Positions 5,343-12,056 of a DNA stretch of 14,611 bases are shown piece after piece. Origin of the DNA: Promethearchaeota archaeon (lineage in GTDB: Archaea > Asgardarchaeota > Lokiarchaeia > Sigyniarchaeales > SOKP01); assembly GCA_004524535.1 (NCBI GenBank), contig SDNY01000093.1, forward strand, positions 1-14,611, in the 5' to 3' direction. Below the pieces are notes generated by a model, which saw nothing but the letters and a program-made list of their open reading frames with translations, did no database searches and was not told the DNA's origin. Positions within the stretch are counted from its first letter, which is position 1. Each line of letters opens with the position of its first letter. Position numbers and translations under genes: made by a program.

Positions 5343-5852
5343 TTATTCTTTGGCATACTTGTCTGTCCATTTACGCGCTTTAGACTCAAATTTCTTCAAA
5401 TTCCTAAAATATTCTTCTCCTGCTTCGTGATTTAGTGGATCTCCGGGATTAAAGAAAGGAGCCTCATAATGCATCATGCCCTTTAAAGCTTCGATAATAT
5501 TAATTAAAGTTTTTGATGGTGTCCACCCGGATGCACCAGTACTCGCATCAACTTTACCTACGAGATCGGGATTAATCAAGTCCAGACAGATGTTAAGTTT
5601 GCCAGGGGGTATGCTAGAATCAATGTTAGGATGCCACATAAGAGTTACCGCATACGCGTACGGCGGAGCGAAGGGATAATTTTCAGGGAACTTAATCTCA
5701 AAAACAAATTTTCCATCCGCATATGGATTTCCTTTTTTACCAATAATAGTTAATCGTAAATGATCTATACTTCGCCCCCATGGTTCAATAATAACATATG
5801 GATCATCTTTATACGTCTCTAAAGCGTCCCCATAGTCATTTTCTTCACGCAA
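5343..5852 (-). CDS. Ubiquitin-conjugating enzyme E2 (UBC fold)
   Basis: G..GNPYADGKF.FEIKFPENYPFAPP, HPNI, catalytic ICLDL (Cys codon 5586-5588), GWTP, DPLN.EA, FESKARKWT.KYA. The start codon is uncertain (TTG at 5852; a near-frame ATG lies at 5863). Confidence 0.95.
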   Translation of the reverse strand: MREENDYGDALETYKDDPYVIIEPWGRSIDHLRLTIIGKKGNPYADGKFVFEIKFPENYPFAPPYAYAVTLMWHPNIDSSIPPGKLNICLDLINPDLVGKVDASTGASGWTPSKTLINIIEALKGMMHYEAPFFNPGDPLNHEAGEEYFRNLKKFESKARKWTDKYAKE

Positions 5853-6026
5853 ATTTCTTTCATCTCAAATATAAATATTTTTATAATTTAATTTAATAAA
5901 AAGATTTTAATAATTTAATAAAAAGGTTTGGAATTCATAAATTATACGGATTTTTCATTTTTTTATTATGAAAAAACTATTTAAAAAAAGATTTTATTTT
6001 AGGATTTTTAGAATCTTGCTTAAAAT

Positions 6027-6067
6027 CGTAAAAAATATATAAATTAAAGAATTAGATAATTATAAAA
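6027..6067 (+). promoter_or_regulatory. Candidate BRE/TATA promoter(s) for tRNA-Tyr
   Basis: cgtaaaaaa-TATATAAA (TATA 6036-6043) and TTATAAAA (6060-6067) lie upstream of the tRNA 5' end at 6086. The AT-rich background limits specificity. Confidence 0.4.
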
Positions 6068-6085
6068 AAACCCCTCTATAAATAG

Positions 6086-6273
6086 CCCCTCTTATTTAAA
6101 GGAATAACCTTTAAAGAGGTAAGCTCAGACTGGTAGAGCGCTCGGCTGTAGATGAAATCGCGTACTAAGGTTTTGTACCTATGAAGTTACGTCAGCCAGC
6201 AAAAACCGAGCGGCCCCCGGATGCGTCGGTCCAAAACGGAACGACGGCGGAACGAGGCCGGGAGAGGGGACCA
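6086..6273 (+). tRNA. tRNA-Tyr(GTA) with three introns (exons 6086-6093, 6122-6151, 6205-6222, 6253-6273)
   Basis: Acceptor stem CCCCTCT(6086-92)/AGAGGGG(6263-69), A73 and encoded CCA. D-stem GCTC/GAGC. Anticodon stem CTCGG/CCGAG with GTA at 6148-6150. T-stem CCCGG/CCGGG. C1:G72 plus A73 are the archaeal/eukaryotic Tyr identity elements. The spliced product is 77 nt. Confidence 0.92.
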
Positions 6274-6381
6274 TTTTATTTTTCTTTATAGACTTTAATT
6301 AGTTTCTACATTTAACTTCAAAAAAATTATTATTTTAATTTCATTATTCTTAACTATAAAGTTAAAAGAAAAAAGAATTAA

Positions 6382-7299
6382 ATGAAAAAAAAGAGTACAG
6401 CCGTTGTGGGTGCGGGATGGTTCGGAAGGGCTCATATAAGAAACTTTAATGAGCTTTCAAATTTAGTTTGCGTTTGTGATATCGATAAGGCAAAATTGGA
6501 GCAAGTTGCTAAACAATATGATATAAATACTTATACAAATGTGGATGATTTGATAAAAAGTGAAGAAATTGACGCAGTTAGCATTGTAACCCCGCCTAAA
6601 TTTATACCTTCCATATCAAAAAAATTTGCATCGGCTGGAATTGACATTCTAATGGAAAAACCAATGGCATTAAATATCCAAGAGTTAAAAGCTTTCTTGG
6701 ATTATGAGAATAGTATTAAAATTTTACCCGCCTTCATAGAACTTTATAATCCTGTTTTTGAAAAACTTTTAGAGCATTTACCTCAAATTGGTGAAGTATT
6801 TTCAATTACCTCAAGGAGAATTGGATTATATCCCAAAAGAGACTGGCAAATGGGAGTTATATTAGATTTGTCAATACATGATATATATTTACAAGAGAGG
6901 ATCTTAGGCAAAGAAAATTTTGTAGATGCGTTTGGAGTAAAAAAATGCTTTAAAGATGATATACACGCCGATGCTGCGTTTATAGTATTAGATTTTGGAA
7001 ACTCAATTGGACATATAGAATCGAACTGGCTTACTCCTTCAAAATTTAGAAAAATGTATCTTAGTGGGGTTTCAGGTGGAATAATTGTAGATTTTATGAA
7101 TCAAAAAATTAAAATCAATACGGGAATAGATTTACAAGGAGACTGGCCCGTAAATAAAGAAATATCGTATACTCCTTTAAGAGCTGACGAACCTCTTAGA
7201 AGAGAAATTAATAATTTTCTCTACGATAAAGAACCTCTTGTAACACTAGAAGATGGTATAAGAGCTTTGGAAATTGCTTTAAAAATCGTTAATAATTAA
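6382..7299 (+). CDS. Gfo/Idh/MocA family NAD-dependent oxidoreductase (nucleotide-sugar dehydrogenase-like)
   Basis: Rossmann AVVGAGWFG, MEKP motif, GVILDLSIHD, SNWLTP.K.R, EPLRREI..F. Confidence 0.9.
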   Translation: MKKKSTAVVGAGWFGRAHIRNFNELSNLVCVCDIDKAKLEQVAKQYDINTYTNVDDLIKSEEIDAVSIVTPPKFIPSISKKFASAGIDILMEKPMALNIQELKAFLDYENSIKILPAFIELYNPVFEKLLEHLPQIGEVFSITSRRIGLYPKRDWQMGVILDLSIHDIYLQERILGKENFVDAFGVKKCFKDDIHADAAFIVLDFGNSIGHIESNWLTPSKFRKMYLSGVSGGIIVDFMNQKIKINTGIDLQGDWPVNKEISYTPLRADEPLRREINNFLYDKEPLVTLEDGIRALEIALKIVNN

Positions 7300-7747: not shown

Positions 7748-7894
7748 ATTTAAGTAAGTATTCTTTTTAGACCTTGAAAACAAAATATTCTTAAATAAAG
7801 ATCCCTATAACTTATTTTTAATTCATCTATGTAAACCAAAAATAACATTATAACTTCTGAGATTTATCAATCACCGAAAAAATTGTGTCGATTC

Positions 7895-8896
7895 ATGGCT
7901 TTAAAAAAAGTAAAGAAAAAAGATTTTATTAGTACTCAAGAATGGGATAAAGAGGAATTGGATGAGTTATTAAAGTTAACAAAAGATGTGAAATTAAATC
8001 CAAAAAAGTATAGAAATTCCTTAGATGGAAAATCTATATGCATGTTTTTTTATAATCCCTCAACTCGAACAAGAAATTCGACTCAAGTGGCAGCCTATCA
8101 ATTAGGTATGCAAGCAACTTTTAACAGCATTAAAGATTCTTGGATTGGCTATAAATCTGAGTCTGTAAAAGACACAGCGATAGTTTTATCAAGATATTAC
8201 GACGCAATTGGAATTCGATTATTCCCTAATTCTGTAAATTGGATTTATAAGGAAGGAAATAAAATTCTTCGGGAATTTGCGAAATGGGCTCCTGTTCCTA
8301 TTATTAATTTTGAAGATGATCAATTCCATCCTCTCCAAGCACTTACAGATATCTTTACAATAAAAGAGAAAAAGAAAGAAGTTAAAGGAAAGAAGGTTGT
8401 GATTTCGTGGGCTTATCATCCAAATCCTTTGCCATTAAGTGTTCCAAACTCTATTTTGCTTATAACTACTCGATATGGAATGAATGTGACTTTAGCTCAT
8501 CCAAAAAATTATGAATTAGATGATGAAATCTTAAATATGGCACATCAAAATGCGAATGAATCAGGGGGATCCCTTGAATTTTCTAATGATATAGAGGATT
8601 CTTATAAAGATGCTGATGTCGTCTACATTAAAAGCTGGGGCTCAATAAAGGAATATGGAAATGCGAAAGCAGAAAAGCCTCTAAGAGTACCTTATAGAGA
8701 TAGTTGGAGAATTCAAGAAAAATATTTAGAAAATACTCAGAATGATTCAATTCTAATGCATTGTTTACCCATTAGACGAAATATTGTCGCAGAAGATGCA
8801 GTAATTGATGGAAAGCATTCCATTGTGTATGATCAAGCAGAAAACCGTCTTTATACAGCTAAGTCACTTCTCTATTATTTACTTAAAGAGAAATAA
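7895..8896 (+). CDS. argF: N-acyl-ornithine carbamoyltransferase (AOTCase/SOTCase, ArgF'-type)
   Basis: Carbamoyl-phosphate motif FYNPSTRT, HPLQALTD, the ArgF'-specific WAYHPNPLP..V.NS and HCLPIRRN. The ATG at 7895 is preferred over the TTG at 7883. Confidence 0.85.
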   Translation: MALKKVKKKDFISTQEWDKEELDELLKLTKDVKLNPKKYRNSLDGKSICMFFYNPSTRTRNSTQVAAYQLGMQATFNSIKDSWIGYKSESVKDTAIVLSRYYDAIGIRLFPNSVNWIYKEGNKILREFAKWAPVPIINFEDDQFHPLQALTDIFTIKEKKKEVKGKKVVISWAYHPNPLPLSVPNSILLITTRYGMNVTLAHPKNYELDDEILNMAHQNANESGGSLEFSNDIEDSYKDADVVYIKSWGSIKEYGNAKAEKPLRVPYRDSWRIQEKYLENTQNDSILMHCLPIRRNIVAEDAVIDGKHSIVYDQAENRLYTAKSLLYYLLKEK

Positions 8897-8901
8897 AAGA
8901 A

Positions 8902-9456
8902 TTATTGTTCTCTAGCAGATATGGTGGCTATAACTTCATATTCTCCATTGTCGAATTGTTTTGAGTCAATATTAGCAAATTGAAACGCAAAAGGCCTTGT
9001 GAAGATTTGCTCTACCATAGGAGCGAACGAGCTAACAGCAAATATTAAAACTCTTTTTAGAATTCCCTCAACTTTATCTTGAATATTCAGTTCCTTCATA
9101 ACTTCTTCAACAACAGCAATTTCCTTTTGATTATAATGATACCTATATACACATTTAAAATCAACGGTGGTGGGCGCTTCAGGATCTTCAAGTGATAAAC
9201 CCCCTTTTCTAAAAGGAAAGATTGTTGTTAGATAAAAATAAAATATTTCTTCATAATGATCTTTTAAAAGATTCGCAATCATGAAACGATGTTCATAGTT
9301 TTTCCAATAAGCTTTCATAAGTTCTAAAAGACGAGGATAATTTTTATATTTATTTTCGGCGTCCTTTCTTAAATAGTTAAGTAAGGCGTTTTTAAGTGGT
9401 TTAAATTCGCTCTCCTTTCCTGCCCGTAATAAAAATTTTTTGAATCTAATACTCAT
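8902..9456 (-). CDS. Hypothetical protein
   Basis: 184-aa ATG-initiated ORF with plausible composition that fills the gap convergent to argF'. No motif recognised. Confidence 0.7.
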   Translation of the reverse strand: MSIRFKKFLLRAGKESEFKPLKNALLNYLRKDAENKYKNYPRLLELMKAYWKNYEHRFMIANLLKDHYEEIFYFYLTTIFPFRKGGLSLEDPEAPTTVDFKCVYRYHYNQKEIAVVEEVMKELNIQDKVEGILKRVLIFAVSSFAPMVEQIFTRPFAFQFANIDSKQFDNGEYEVIATISAREQ

Positions 9457-9711
9457 TATTTGCTGTAGACGAATAGTTGTTATTGAATATTTATTTCTTC
9501 TATAATATTTAAATAATTTAATCTTTTGTATTTAATCCTACCATTATTTCACTCATACTTTCAAAAAATAAATAAAAGATTAAAAAAAGAAATAATATTA
9601 GGATATAATTAATAATAATAGAATTTCTTGACAAAAGATACTTAAAAAAATTAGAGGTAATAGGAGATTTTTGATTCTAGCTCGTATACGAGATCAGAAG
9701 ATACATTATTC

Positions 9712-10827
9712 TTGAATGCGCTTACTCCAAATATAACAGAAATGCCTTTTATTTATGAAGCAATAGAACGTTTTTGTGAAGTAAAAACTTCGATTGACCC
9801 GAGTAGTAGATATAATGTGTCTTTTTTTGAAGAGAACGGTCCAAATTATCTTGAAGATTTCACCTTAAATTCCGAACATATTCTACTAACATTAAAGTCA
9901 TTAGAACCCGTTATTATTGGAGGAAATATCGGAGGAGGTATTTTTGTGGGAATTTCGTTTATTATTCAAGCTTTTAAAATTATTGGTGAAAAGGCTTTTC
10001 GCTTAATTGTATTTTCTGATGCATACACACCAAAAATTGCACCAGTATATTTACCTGTTCTTCAAAATTTGATCTCCCAAGTCAAAGACATGCCATTATT
10101 TATTGATATTATTAGAATTAAAATAAAAGATCCTGAAGAAGACGAAAAATTACAGAAATTGGTGAAAAGGTGTAATGGGGAAATTCTTTATGTAGAAAAG
10201 CTTAATGAGTTACCTCAATTATTAGAGACATTAGCATTAAAGAAAAAGATTAAGAGAAGTTCATTGGAGGATGGAAAATATATAATTCCCCAAGATAGCC
10301 ATTTATTTTACATAAACTTGGCAGAAGATTTAGCTGAAGTAAAAAAACACGATACATGTTCTATTTGTTTTGAAAAAGATGCGACAGATCTATTGAAGTG
10401 TAAAAAATGTGGAACTAAAGCTCATAGGACTTGTTGGGCACAATGGGCTCCAGAAACCTCGATAGGAATACCTCACGTCTTTAGGTGTTTTAATTGTTAT
10501 AATTTAATAAGACTTGATAGAGAATATATTGAAAAAGTTAAGTTTACTAAGGCAATGCAACGTGATATTCGAGTAGAACTTTTAGATATTCAAGATTATT
10601 TAAAAAGTCATGAATCACAGGAAGCCCCACAGGTAATTCAAGCAGAAAATGTATTGGGAATCTCTACTGGAGTATCTGATGCTAACCAAATCGAGACCCC
10701 CAAAACTGAAGATATTAAAAAAGAAATAAAGGATGAGGAACTTAAATTTATTTTATGCCCACACTGTTATAAGATGATAACTAATGAGTATAAAATTTGT
10801 CCCGCATGTCATAAGACAATTAAATAA
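9712..10827 (+). CDS. vWA domain (Rpn10/Ssl1/MERIT40-like) + C4HC3 PHD/RINGv finger + C-terminal zinc ribbon protein
   Basis: AIERFCEVKTSIDP...RLIVFSD...FIDIIRI...LQKLVKRCNGEILYV gives a vWA beta/alpha pattern. CSIC-x10-CKKC-x4-HRTC-x15-CFNC is the finger, and CPHC-x10-CPAC is the ribbon. The frame is open back to 9664, so the true start is probably upstream of 9712. Confidence 0.75.
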   Translation: MNALTPNITEMPFIYEAIERFCEVKTSIDPSSRYNVSFFEENGPNYLEDFTLNSEHILLTLKSLEPVIIGGNIGGGIFVGISFIIQAFKIIGEKAFRLIVFSDAYTPKIAPVYLPVLQNLISQVKDMPLFIDIIRIKIKDPEEDEKLQKLVKRCNGEILYVEKLNELPQLLETLALKKKIKRSSLEDGKYIIPQDSHLFYINLAEDLAEVKKHDTCSICFEKDATDLLKCKKCGTKAHRTCWAQWAPETSIGIPHVFRCFNCYNLIRLDREYIEKVKFTKAMQRDIRVELLDIQDYLKSHESQEAPQVIQAENVLGISTGVSDANQIETPKTEDIKKEIKDEELKFILCPHCYKMITNEYKICPACHKTIK

Positions 10828-10859
10828 TAGAAAAAAAATTACTGTTTATAATTATTATA

Positions 10860-12056
10860 ATGGTTGGCAATAAAGTTGGTTTAATCTGGTCTAATGATTA
10901 TCAAAGATATAATTTTGGACAAAGTCATCCGTTACGCCCCCAACGGCTGGAGCTGACTTATAGCTTAATGCAAAAGCTGGGGCTTCTTGATAACCCTCGA
11001 TTAGAAATTATTTCTCCTCGTATGTGTACTAAAGAAGAATTGGAGATGGTCCATTCTCCAAAATATATTGATATAGTTAAAAAACTCAGCGATAATCCAG
11101 AAGATAATTCAATTATTCCTTTCCGATATGGATTAGGGCCTGGGGATAATCCAATTTTTAAGGGTATGTATGAGGCATCTGCTTTGATTTGTGGAGGATC
11201 TCTAATAGCTGCTGATAAGGTTTGGACTGATGATGAATTCAATGTAGCTTTTAATTTTGCTGGAGGACTTCATCATGCTGTTAAAGATAAAGCCTCAGGA
11301 TTCTGTATTTTCAACGATATAGCTGTGGCAATAGCACATCTCAAAAAAGTACAAAAAGATATCCGAATCGCATACTTAGATATTGATTGCCATCATGGAG
11401 ATGGTGTTCAATGGCTATTTTACGATGATCCTGACGTTCTAACTATTTCATACCATGAAACTGGACAATTCTTGTTCCCTGGAACAGGAAATCTTAATGA
11501 ACGAGGCGAAGGAAAAGGAAAAGGATTTTCAATTAATTTTCCTTTATTGCCGGGAACTAATAATAAAATATATTTGAATTTATTCCGAAAAACAGCTCCT
11601 AGAATATTGGAAACTTACCAACCAGATATATTGATATCTCAATTAGGAGTTGATAGCTATTTTGATGATCCATTAACTCAAATGGGGCTTTCAATCCAAG
11701 TATATAGGGATATTGCTCAAACCCTAAAAACAAGCGCAAAAGAATATTGTCAAAATAAATGGCTTGCTTTAGGTGGGGGGGGTTATTTAATTTCAGTTGT
11801 ACCAAGAGCATGGAGCTTATTTCTAGCCAAAATGCTGGATGTGGACTTAAATAATGAATTACCTCAAAGTTGGATTGAAGAGGTGAAAGAAAAAGCTCCT
11901 CATGAAAATAAACCATATTTATTATGGGATAGAGATGATAAAACGAAAGTTGAGATGCTTGCCAATCCCGAAATCGCAAAAAAAATGATCAATTATACAA
12001 AAGAACTTATTAAAATATGTGATGAGGATTTTATCCCAGCTTTAATTGGTTCCTAA
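10860..12056 (+). CDS. acuC: Zn-dependent histone deacetylase family protein (class I HDAC / AcuC-like)
   Basis: FGQSHPLRPQR, GGLHHA, SGFCIFND, YLDIDCHHGDGVQ, FPGTG, GVD...DPL and GGGGY: the full catalytic set. Confidence 0.92.
   Translation: MVGNKVGLIWSNDYQRYNFGQSHPLRPQRLELTYSLMQKLGLLDNPRLEIISPRMCTKEELEMVHSPKYIDIVKKLSDNPEDNSIIPFRYGLGPGDNPIFKGMYEASALICGGSLIAADKVWTDDEFNVAFNFAGGLHHAVKDKASGFCIFNDIAVAIAHLKKVQKDIRIAYLDIDCHHGDGVQWLFYDDPDVLTISYHETGQFLFPGTGNLNERGEGKGKGFSINFPLLPGTNNKIYLNLFRKTAPRILETYQPDILISQLGVDSYFDDPLTQMGLSIQVYRDIAQTLKTSAKEYCQNKWLALGGGGYLISVVPRAWSLFLAKMLDVDLNNELPQSWIEEVKEKAPHENKPYLLWDRDDKTKVEMLANPEIAKKMINYTKELIKICDEDFIPALIGS

Follow-up and report, generated by a model that had tools for sequence, protein, structure and literature searches.

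Non-canonical introns of archaeal tRNA genes are spliced by proteins at a motif called bulge-helix-bulge (BHB), in which a 4-bp helix lies between two 3-nucleotide (nt) bulges. They can occupy any site of the tRNA, up to three occur in a single gene, and some have a relaxed motif, written HBh' (PMC4090602). The positions given in that source include 3/4 (in Thermoproteales), 20/21, 22/23, 25/26, 29/30, 45/46, 53/54, 56/57 and 59/60. Here we describe a gene for tRNA-Tyr(GUA) on contig SDNY01000093.1 of a Promethearchaeota archaeon from the Lokiarchaeia (assembly GCA_004524535.1); the window that we analysed is the whole contig of 14,611 nt. As we read the gene, all of these properties also apply to its introns, and three others set it apart. 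Its first intron is at position 8/9, which lies outside the list above and, judged from that list, is rarely or never reported. The central helix of this intron is made from bases of the acceptor strand of the tRNA itself. Finally, the leader carries a copy of the acceptor 5' strand, a feature that the available part of PMC4090602 does not mention. Our overall reading, which we regard as probable, is that this is the sole tRNA-Tyr gene of the genome, that it contains three BHB introns of which the one at 8/9 is a recent gain, and that the spare strand in the leader frees the real strand for splicing.

In Asgard archaea most tRNA genes are interrupted, and many of the introns are missed by standard software. 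Intron gains have been repeated and recent, with 71 of 129 on terminal branches, and BHB boundaries are preferred (PMC11291895; preprint 10.64898/2026.10.13.758758). The locus described here belongs among these recent gains, and standard finders overlook its gene altogether. The word "leader" does not occur in the available part of the main text of the Asgard intron survey, where it is left open how sites become spliceable. For help that comes from outside the mature tRNA, the split tRNAs of Nanoarchaeum equitans are the nearest analogy. There, leader and trailer sequences supply the pairing that presents the BHB and hold the pieces together for cutting and joining (PMC4090602). The two cases differ in that the complementary extensions of two transcripts build the motif itself in N. 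equitans, whereas here the duplicate strand of a single transcript would occupy the competing partner. We found no published description of a leader copy of the acceptor strand in the titles and abstracts returned by full-text searches, which is not proof of its absence.

The tRNA-Tyr gene and its 8/9 intron

The genome (G000 hereafter) is a draft of 3.66 Mb in 198 contigs, with a G+C content of 30.4%, and is rated 99.1% complete. On the contig in question (C24), a gap of 530 nt separates two open reading frames (ORFs), 5343-5852 on the minus and 6382-7299 on the plus strand. Reading this gap by hand we recognised a tRNA-Tyr(GUA) gene at 6086-6273 on the plus strand, in four exons and three introns (Table 1). 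The exons joined in silico give 77 nt, which ARAGORN calls as tRNA-Tyr(gta), and fold into a perfect cloverleaf with C1-G72, A73 and an encoded CCA. C1-G72 is the tyrosine identity pair of Archaea and Eukarya. A scan of 6041-6300 for BHB geometry (a 4-bp central helix H, two 3-nt bulges and a cut 2 nt into each bulge, with h' the inner and h the outer helix) predicts exactly the three pairs of splice sites that the cloverleaf needs. The odd T loop of the product, AUCGAGG with A54, appears to be genuine, because the relative G018 has the same T loop uninterrupted, together with the same acceptor stem. Across the family A54 replaces U54 in tRNA-Tyr of several genera (T loops AUCGAGG, AUCAAAG and AUCAAGA), which would abolish the usual U54-A58 pair of the T loop.

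None of this is visible to the finders that we used. ARAGORN on the window and Rfam at its gathering score report no tRNA at the locus, and neither does Rfam at E up to 10 on the stretch 5950-6400. Over the whole genome RF00005 yields 26 matches, 15 of them above the cut-off and none at the locus, and ARAGORN with intron search finds 12 tRNA genes. So few tRNA genes suggest that heavy interruption is the rule in this genome, as is reported for some Asgard lineages (PMC11291895; preprint 10.64898/2026.10.13.758758). The sequence GGCTGTAG, which is invariant in tRNA-Tyr of the family, occurs at 31 sites in G000 but stands in a tRNA context only here. This appears to be the sole tRNA-Tyr gene, and, given the completeness of the genome, it should be needed.

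Of the three motifs, that of intron 1 is the best BHB in 6041-6300. CCUC at tRNA positions 3-6 pairs with GAGG inside the intron, between the bulges UUA (6092-6094) and UAA (6120-6122), and an inner stem of 8 bp follows (TTTAAAGG, 6095-6102, with CCTTTAAA, 6108-6115, around the loop AATAA). An earlier reading of the sequence alone had placed helix, bulges, stem and the 8-nt first exon at these very bases, and all of them are exact. The geometry scan likewise returns the intron that this sequence-only reading had proposed at 8/9, the mature 5' end that it predicted, CCCCUCUUAGCUC, agrees with the uninterrupted orthologues, which read CCCCTCTT followed by A(A/G)CTCAG, and its point that the motif and the acceptor stem exclude each other holds, as the central helix consists of acceptor-strand bases 3-6.

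Such a motif rarely arises by chance. Among 20,000 shuffles of intron 1, a full central helix with a flanking helix of at least 2 bp appears in 0.045%, and one with an inner helix of at least 6 bp in none. When a 28-nt window is slid along the locus, 2 of 205 positions satisfy the canonical BHB rule. Folded locally, 6080-6130 reaches a minimum free energy (MFE) of -13.7 kcal/mol (z -2.69), which 3 of 200 shuffles equal. Since A6094 and A6122 are both A, the sequence itself would fit an intron at 8/9 or at 9/10, and it is the BHB cutting rule that selects 8/9. The MFE and centroid folds slightly favour neighbouring registers of the AU-rich stem, with six or five pairs before the bulge, which are nearly isoenergetic with the 4-bp register that the enzyme needs.

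The genome also encodes the machinery. We found two EndA paralogues of 201 aa each with 29% identity, on contigs C100 and C84 (two PF01974 matches, with PDB matches to tRNA-splicing endonucleases), an RNase P RNA and one RtcB (one PF01139 match). Of the EndA paralogues one retains the His of the Y..H..K pattern, whereas the other has none at that place. Relaxed motifs at non-canonical positions are reported to be cut by (alpha-beta)2 and epsilon2 endonucleases (PMC5829648; PMC3239211), and two diverged paralogues, one lacking the catalytic His, would match that class and fit a two-subunit enzyme of broad range. Intron 1 thus combines the features by which BHB introns are recognised: a central helix with its bulges, a flanking helix, a canonical tRNA on excision, and an encoded endonuclease and RtcB. 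On these sequence features we have little doubt that it is real and spliced. A blastn-short search of G000 with intron 1 returned only the self-match (E up to 0.05), hence there is no sign of intron copying between genes.

The intron is young. We searched 40 relatives, obtained a tRNA-Tyr match in 21 genomes including G000, and parsed 21 loci by script. The 8/9 intron is present in two of these, G000 and G008, which are 99% alike. In the other 19 the 5' strand runs straight into the D arm; 13 are uninterrupted before the anticodon and six have a D-arm intron. Because five of the six other genomes of the same genus with a match lack the 8/9 intron, it must have been gained recently. Two changes that distinguish G008 (6103 A>G and 6107 A>C) convert loop bases into a ninth, G-C pair of the stem, and one environmental contig has 6107 A>C alone. 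A scan of the collections for CCTCTTA-N10-40-GAGGTAAGCTCAG found 11 metagenome and 8 genome loci, of which a single one is homologous, with a sequence equal to that of G008. The other 18 were discarded as chance matches in unrelated DNA. A search for RNA sequencing runs that contain the locus found none.

One could argue that the locus is a decaying pseudogene that has retained its insertions, and that a working tRNA-Tyr gene lies in unassembled DNA. Three interruptions, the blindness of standard finders and a draft in 198 contigs are all compatible with this. It is nevertheless highly improbable, for the following reasons. First, excision restores a perfect cloverleaf, and all three insertions sit on BHB motifs at the sites needed. 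Second, the allele, with its leader copy, is found not only in G008 but also on DNA contigs from three studies, and the changes in intron 1 either preserve the stem or fall in the loop. Third, there is no second tRNA-Tyr-like site in a genome of this completeness. Fourth, heavy interruption is normal in such Asgard genomes (preprint 10.64898/2026.10.13.758758).

The leader copy and the predicted fold switch

The 7-nt leader copy CCCCTCT lies 15 bases upstream of the real 5' strand and is identical to it at all seven positions. Counting both strands, the genome contains this 7-mer 213 times, a frequency of 2.9e-5 per position. From the usual archaeal spacing between TATA box and transcription start, we would place the start near 6062-6066. 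The copy is probably transcribed, because a conserved TATA-like element (tcgtaaaaaatatat..) begins 37 nt upstream of it.

In the MFE fold of 6060-6280 the copy pairs with the acceptor 3' strand AGAGGGG, and the CCUC of the real strand pairs with the GAGG of the intron. Partition functions describe the same arrangement in terms of pairing probability (P). With the copy free, P is 0.87-0.99 for the central helix H and 0.97-0.99 for the copy with the 3' strand, and not above 0.008 for the real strand with the 3' strand. If the copy is kept unpaired, or if the transcript begins at 6078 or 6086, the same three values become 0.000-0.001, 0 and 0.98-1.0. The switch persists at all three temperatures modelled (20, 37 and 50 C), whether introns 2 and 3 are included or removed. 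In the gene of G008 a free copy gives a P(H) of 0.959 and a blocked one 0.000. Folding models thus suggest that the leader copy resolves the conflict of the BHB with the acceptor stem. The sequence-only reading had overlooked the copy and had expected splicing from a non-cloverleaf fold; in this form the claim is not supported, as the copy is predicted to keep a cloverleaf-like body through its pairing with the 3' strand. It had also placed splicing probably before RNase P. For the final trimming, modelling agrees with this: removal of the leader first would abolish the motif, because P(H) falls to 0.000 once the leader is gone.

We propose the following mechanism. The BHB of intron 1, in which acceptor bases 3-6 pair with the intronic GAGG, would compete with the 7-bp acceptor stem, which is far stronger. 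The leader copy, once transcribed, would occupy the 3' strand, and the real strand would be left free to form the BHB. This stand-in acceptor stem would preserve a cloverleaf-like body while the BHB is presented. After cleavage its 7 bp would also hold the leader and the 8-nt exon, which otherwise would be linked to the body only by an outer helix of 1-3 bp. The two-subunit endonuclease would cut at 6093/6094 and 6121/6122 and RtcB would ligate the exons. The real strand would then displace the spare copy, and RNase P would come last and take off the leader including the copy. We infer this order of steps, as we do splicing itself, the transcription of the copy and its selection for a helper role. 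On the modelling described here and the comparisons below, we lean towards the leader copy being a functional helper for splicing.

The copy could have a different meaning if it were itself the true first exon (6071-6077), and if a longer intron, 6079-6121, were excised by way of the same GAGG. The CCUC of the copy (6073-6076) is indeed also complementary to 6116-6119, and the copy stands at the ancestral position of the 5' end. To this explanation we give hardly any credence. A cut after A6078 would produce CCCCUCUA/AGCUC (the slash marks the junction) with A8 instead of the near-universal U8, and all 21 orthologues have T there. No inner helix adjoins that bulge, for which the BHB scan lists no candidate, and P for the CCUC of the copy with GAGG is 0.000. 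Moreover, the orthologous sequence is not regained by any single excision in which the copy takes part.

tRNA-Cys and the origin of the copy

A genome-wide scan of G000 for a repeated GC-rich 7-mer with a downstream complement picked out two tRNA genes, tRNA-Tyr and a tRNA-Ser(GGA) on contig C188. A screen of GC islands, which is a partial census of the hidden tRNA genes, revealed a second, independent case of the tRNA-Tyr design, tRNA-Cys(GCA) on the minus strand of contig C173 at about 18250-18410. It reads GCCAGC-GCCAGCG-TAT-[30 nt]-CCGAG, where the first GCCAGC is a leader copy that directly adjoins the real strand. Its 30-nt intron follows nucleotide 10, with all four pairs in the central helix (GCGU:ACGC, from acceptor bases 5-7 and U8) and an inner helix of 9 bp. 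Blocking the copy lowers P(H) from 0.94 to 0.011. RF00005 gives this gene only 27.1 bits and misplaces its 5' strand; its variable region has 12 nt, against 5 in relatives. Six further hidden tRNA genes of G000, examined by eye, have a 5' strand that is contiguous with the D arm, AT-rich leaders and no copy.

The same 40 relatives provided 30 genomes with a tRNA-Cys match and 23 parsable loci. All eight genes with an intron at 9/10 to 10/11 have a leader copy (G000, G008, G004, G007, G013, G003, G001 and G022). It occurs in three arrangements, at offsets of -6 (five genomes), -12 (two) and -10 (one), and with four types of intron sequence. Among the genes without a 5' intron none of 14 has a copy, and neither does G028, which has a D-loop intron. 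For tRNA-Tyr the copy is present in both genes with the 8/9 intron and in none of the 19 without it. Taken together, a copy is present in 10 of 10 genes whose intron abuts the acceptor strand and in 0 of the 34 others, a contrast among kin that is not a statistical test. In the folding model the motif depends on the copy as a clean switch in seven of the ten loci (tRNA-Tyr of G000 and G008; tRNA-Cys of G000, G008, G004, G007 and G022), and partially in one (G013); in the remaining two (G003 and G001) the assigned helix is not predicted in either condition.

Does this association require a function? Intron 1 could be real and spliced, and the leader copy could be left over, with no function, from the mutation by which the allele arose. 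Such a scar could come from tandem duplication, or from illegitimate recombination in which a donor allele contributed its own leader, 5' strand and intron; the BHB would then form transiently or be captured by the endonuclease. The copy does stand at the place of the mature 5' end in intron-less alleles that share the upstream DNA, so that it is the second strand and the intron that look inserted; on contigs other than those with the intron allele, the upstream DNA is shared up to 6065 and is followed at once by an intron-less gene. The repeat of G008 has 8 nt (GCCCCTCT), and its extra G is unable to pair with A73. Finally, the tRNA-Ser(GGA) gene shows that a leader duplicate can exist with no intron beside it.

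We nonetheless consider the scar an unlikely explanation. It has to account for an association that holds in both tRNAs and, within tRNA-Cys, spans four intron types of unrelated sequence and three spacings or more. To judge by the sequences, copy and intron cannot come from one contiguous insertion in either gene, and at least two separate insertions are required in both. That they need separate insertions and yet occur together in several arrangements argues for selection over a single mutational accident. In the four tRNA-Cys genomes of type A the copy is 100% conserved, whereas the 24-nt upstream flank is 62% and the intron 61% identical. Without the copy, P for the motif helix is 0.000-0.013 in the seven loci of the ten computed that switch cleanly. 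A target-site duplication was considered and rejected, as its copies should flank the intron, and here the two are both upstream of it. The real acceptor strand of tRNA-Tyr (GCCCCTCT) is itself flanked by a 6-bp AU inverted repeat, ATAAATA (6078-6084) and TATTTA (6093-6098), which could be a coincidence in DNA so rich in A and T, or could date from the origin of the allele.

Several observations weigh against a helper role, and against our reading of intron 1 more generally. First, the motif of intron 1 is a relaxed HBh' and not a strict hBHBh', the form that alpha4 and alpha'2 endonucleases accept. Its outer helix is a single pair (C6087-G6123) where at least 2 bp stacked on the 3' bulge are expected, and an alternative of 3 bp (AG 6084-6085 and C6086 with GCU 6123-6125) is weak and leaves C6087 bulged. 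Second, after in-silico splicing the 3' strand is still held by the copy (0.62-0.66) more than by the real strand (0.33-0.37); the shift to the real stem would have to rest on tertiary contacts or on irreversible cleavage by RNase P. Third, in the tRNA-Cys genes of G003 and G001 the assigned BHB helix (three of four pairs) has a P of about 0 whether the copy is free or blocked, although the copy pairs with the 3' strand (0.95-0.99), and in G013 blocking the copy lowers P(H) from 0.997 only to 0.33-0.49. Fourth, the acceptor strand of tRNA-Cys is invariant in the intron-bearing genes, hence the copy never had to co-vary, and the tRNA-Tyr design occurs in a single lineage (G000, G008 and near-identical environmental contigs), which offers neither independent replication nor covariation of the copy. 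Being kin, the ten positives perhaps reduce to four or five separate arrangements. Fifth, the tRNA-Ser(GGA) gene has a 23-nt leader duplicate of its 5' end and no intron there. Such duplications therefore also arise without a helper function, and they could be raw material rather than adaptation.

The tRNA-Ser(GGA) gene lies on the minus strand of C188 at about 6780-6955. It has a canonical 24-nt intron and a 29-nt T-loop intron (59/60) with a strict hBHBh' motif. The duplicate is a partial tandem repeat of the first 23 nt (minus TAGC), 41 nt upstream; the 41-nt repeat unit was also considered as an intron, and we found no convincing BHB that would remove it.

With these points in mind, we would extend the helper role beyond tRNA-Tyr only tentatively. 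Leader copies of the acceptor strand could be selected, general cis-acting helpers that license BHB introns behind or inside the acceptor strand, that impose an order in which splicing comes first and RNase P last, and that tether short first exons. Neutral leader duplications such as that of tRNA-Ser may come first and provide permissive sites at which new introns are able to survive.

Features of the locus and their meaning

Archaeal transcription terminates at oligo-T, and the gene is followed by a T-rich trailer (Table 1). A scan for sigma-70 promoters and terminators was set aside, as it is not applicable to archaeal promoters. Further along the window ARAGORN with intron search calls a tRNA-Val(tac) with a 2927-nt intron at 8050-11067 on the minus strand. 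This call is very likely spurious, because its two ends are rich in A and T and form weak stems, and one of them falls within the ORF 7883-8896.

Table 1. Position of the elements of the tRNA-Tyr locus in the window, and of a repeated element on other contigs of the same genome
Feature	Position	Strand	Basis or remark
Promoter-like element tcgtaaaaaatatataaatt, taken as archaeal BRE (B recognition element)/TATA box	6026..6045	+	Most relatives have this motif, 31-60 nt upstream of the 5' end of tRNA-Tyr
Leader copy of the acceptor 5' strand, CCCCTCT	6071..6077	+	Exact 7-mer repeat of 6086-6092
Leader spacer of 8 nt, ATAAATAG	6078..6085	+	Sequence
Exon 1, tRNA positions 1-8, CCCCTCTT	6086..6093	+	In-silico splice; orthologues read CCCCTCTT, then D arm
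BHB central helix, 5' strand CCTC, tRNA positions 3-6	6088..6091	+	Pairs 4/4 with 6116-6119
Intron 1, 28 nt, position 8/9	6094..6121	+	BHB geometry
BHB central helix, 3' strand GAGG, intronic	6116..6119	+	BHB geometry
BHB motif of intron 1	cuts 6093/6094 and 6121/6122	+	H 4/4 Watson-Crick, h' 8 bp, h 1 bp
Exon 2, positions 9-37: D arm, anticodon stem 5' strand, anticodon GTA	6122..6151	+	In-silico splice, orthologues
Intron 2, 53 nt, canonical position 37/38	6152..6204	+	Relaxed BHB; found by ARAGORN with introns 1 and 3 removed
BHB motif of intron 2	cuts 6151/6152 and 6204/6205	+	H 3/4, h' 2, h 7
Exon 3, position 38 to T-loop position 55	6205..6222	+	In-silico splice; uninterrupted G018 reads ...GCCGG ATCGAGG CCGGC
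Intron 3, 30 nt, T loop 55/56	6223..6252	+	Relaxed BHB; excision restores a G018-type T loop
BHB motif of intron 3	cuts 6222/6223 and 6252/6253	+	H 3/4, h' 5, h 1
Exon 4: rest of T arm, acceptor 3' strand AGAGGGG (6263-6269), A73, encoded CCA	6253..6273	+	In-silico splice
T-rich trailer TTTTATTTTTCTTTA, likely archaeal terminator	6274..6288	+	Sequence; function putative
GC-rich element of about 120 nt, copy on C7	6525-6644	-
GC-rich element, copy on C70	7000-7115
GC-rich element, copy on C157	20724-20844

The second intron of tRNA-Tyr, at 37/38, is conserved in sequence across genera in the alignment of the 21 loci, as AUCGCGUAyUrAGG, a loop and CCnAUGAnnAUACGUCAGCC. One of its stems stays paired despite base changes, for example in locus L013. 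It contains the motif UGAGG/UAAGG ... CCnAUGA, which we liken to a k-turn (L7Ae-binding) hairpin and which has no Rfam match. Ten of the relatives' tRNA-Tyr loci have differing extra introns in the same gene: T-loop introns of varied sequence, insertions in the variable region (G001 and G004), and introns of the D arm (six genomes). Hence, tRNA-Tyr has been hit repeatedly at different sites. Elsewhere in G000, a GC-rich element that an 11-bp stem closes (GACTCCTGCCG...TGGCAGGAGTC) is present three times in AT-rich intergenic DNA (Table 1).

Asgard tRNA genes are the most interrupted known. What makes the tRNA-Tyr locus instructive is that it is a very recent gain in which splice signal and acceptor stem lay claim to the same bases. 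The arrival of introns, and the reason for their persistence at particular sites, are left open in the available part of preprint 10.64898/2026.10.13.758758. A spare strand in the leader would be a simple RNA solution to this competition, and the relatives show it again in another tRNA, tRNA-Cys, in more than one arrangement. Modelling and a strict comparative association support the view that the leader copy may be a new way of making BHB introns spliceable. If the helper role is true, it would explain why acceptor-proximal introns exist at all, and it predicts an obligatory order of processing. It would also supply annotation with a signature, a repeat of the acceptor strand together with a hairpin that carries its complement, for genes that ARAGORN and the Rfam model miss as run here. 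And if such helpers are general, they would address part of the question why Asgard tRNA introns persist at their sites.

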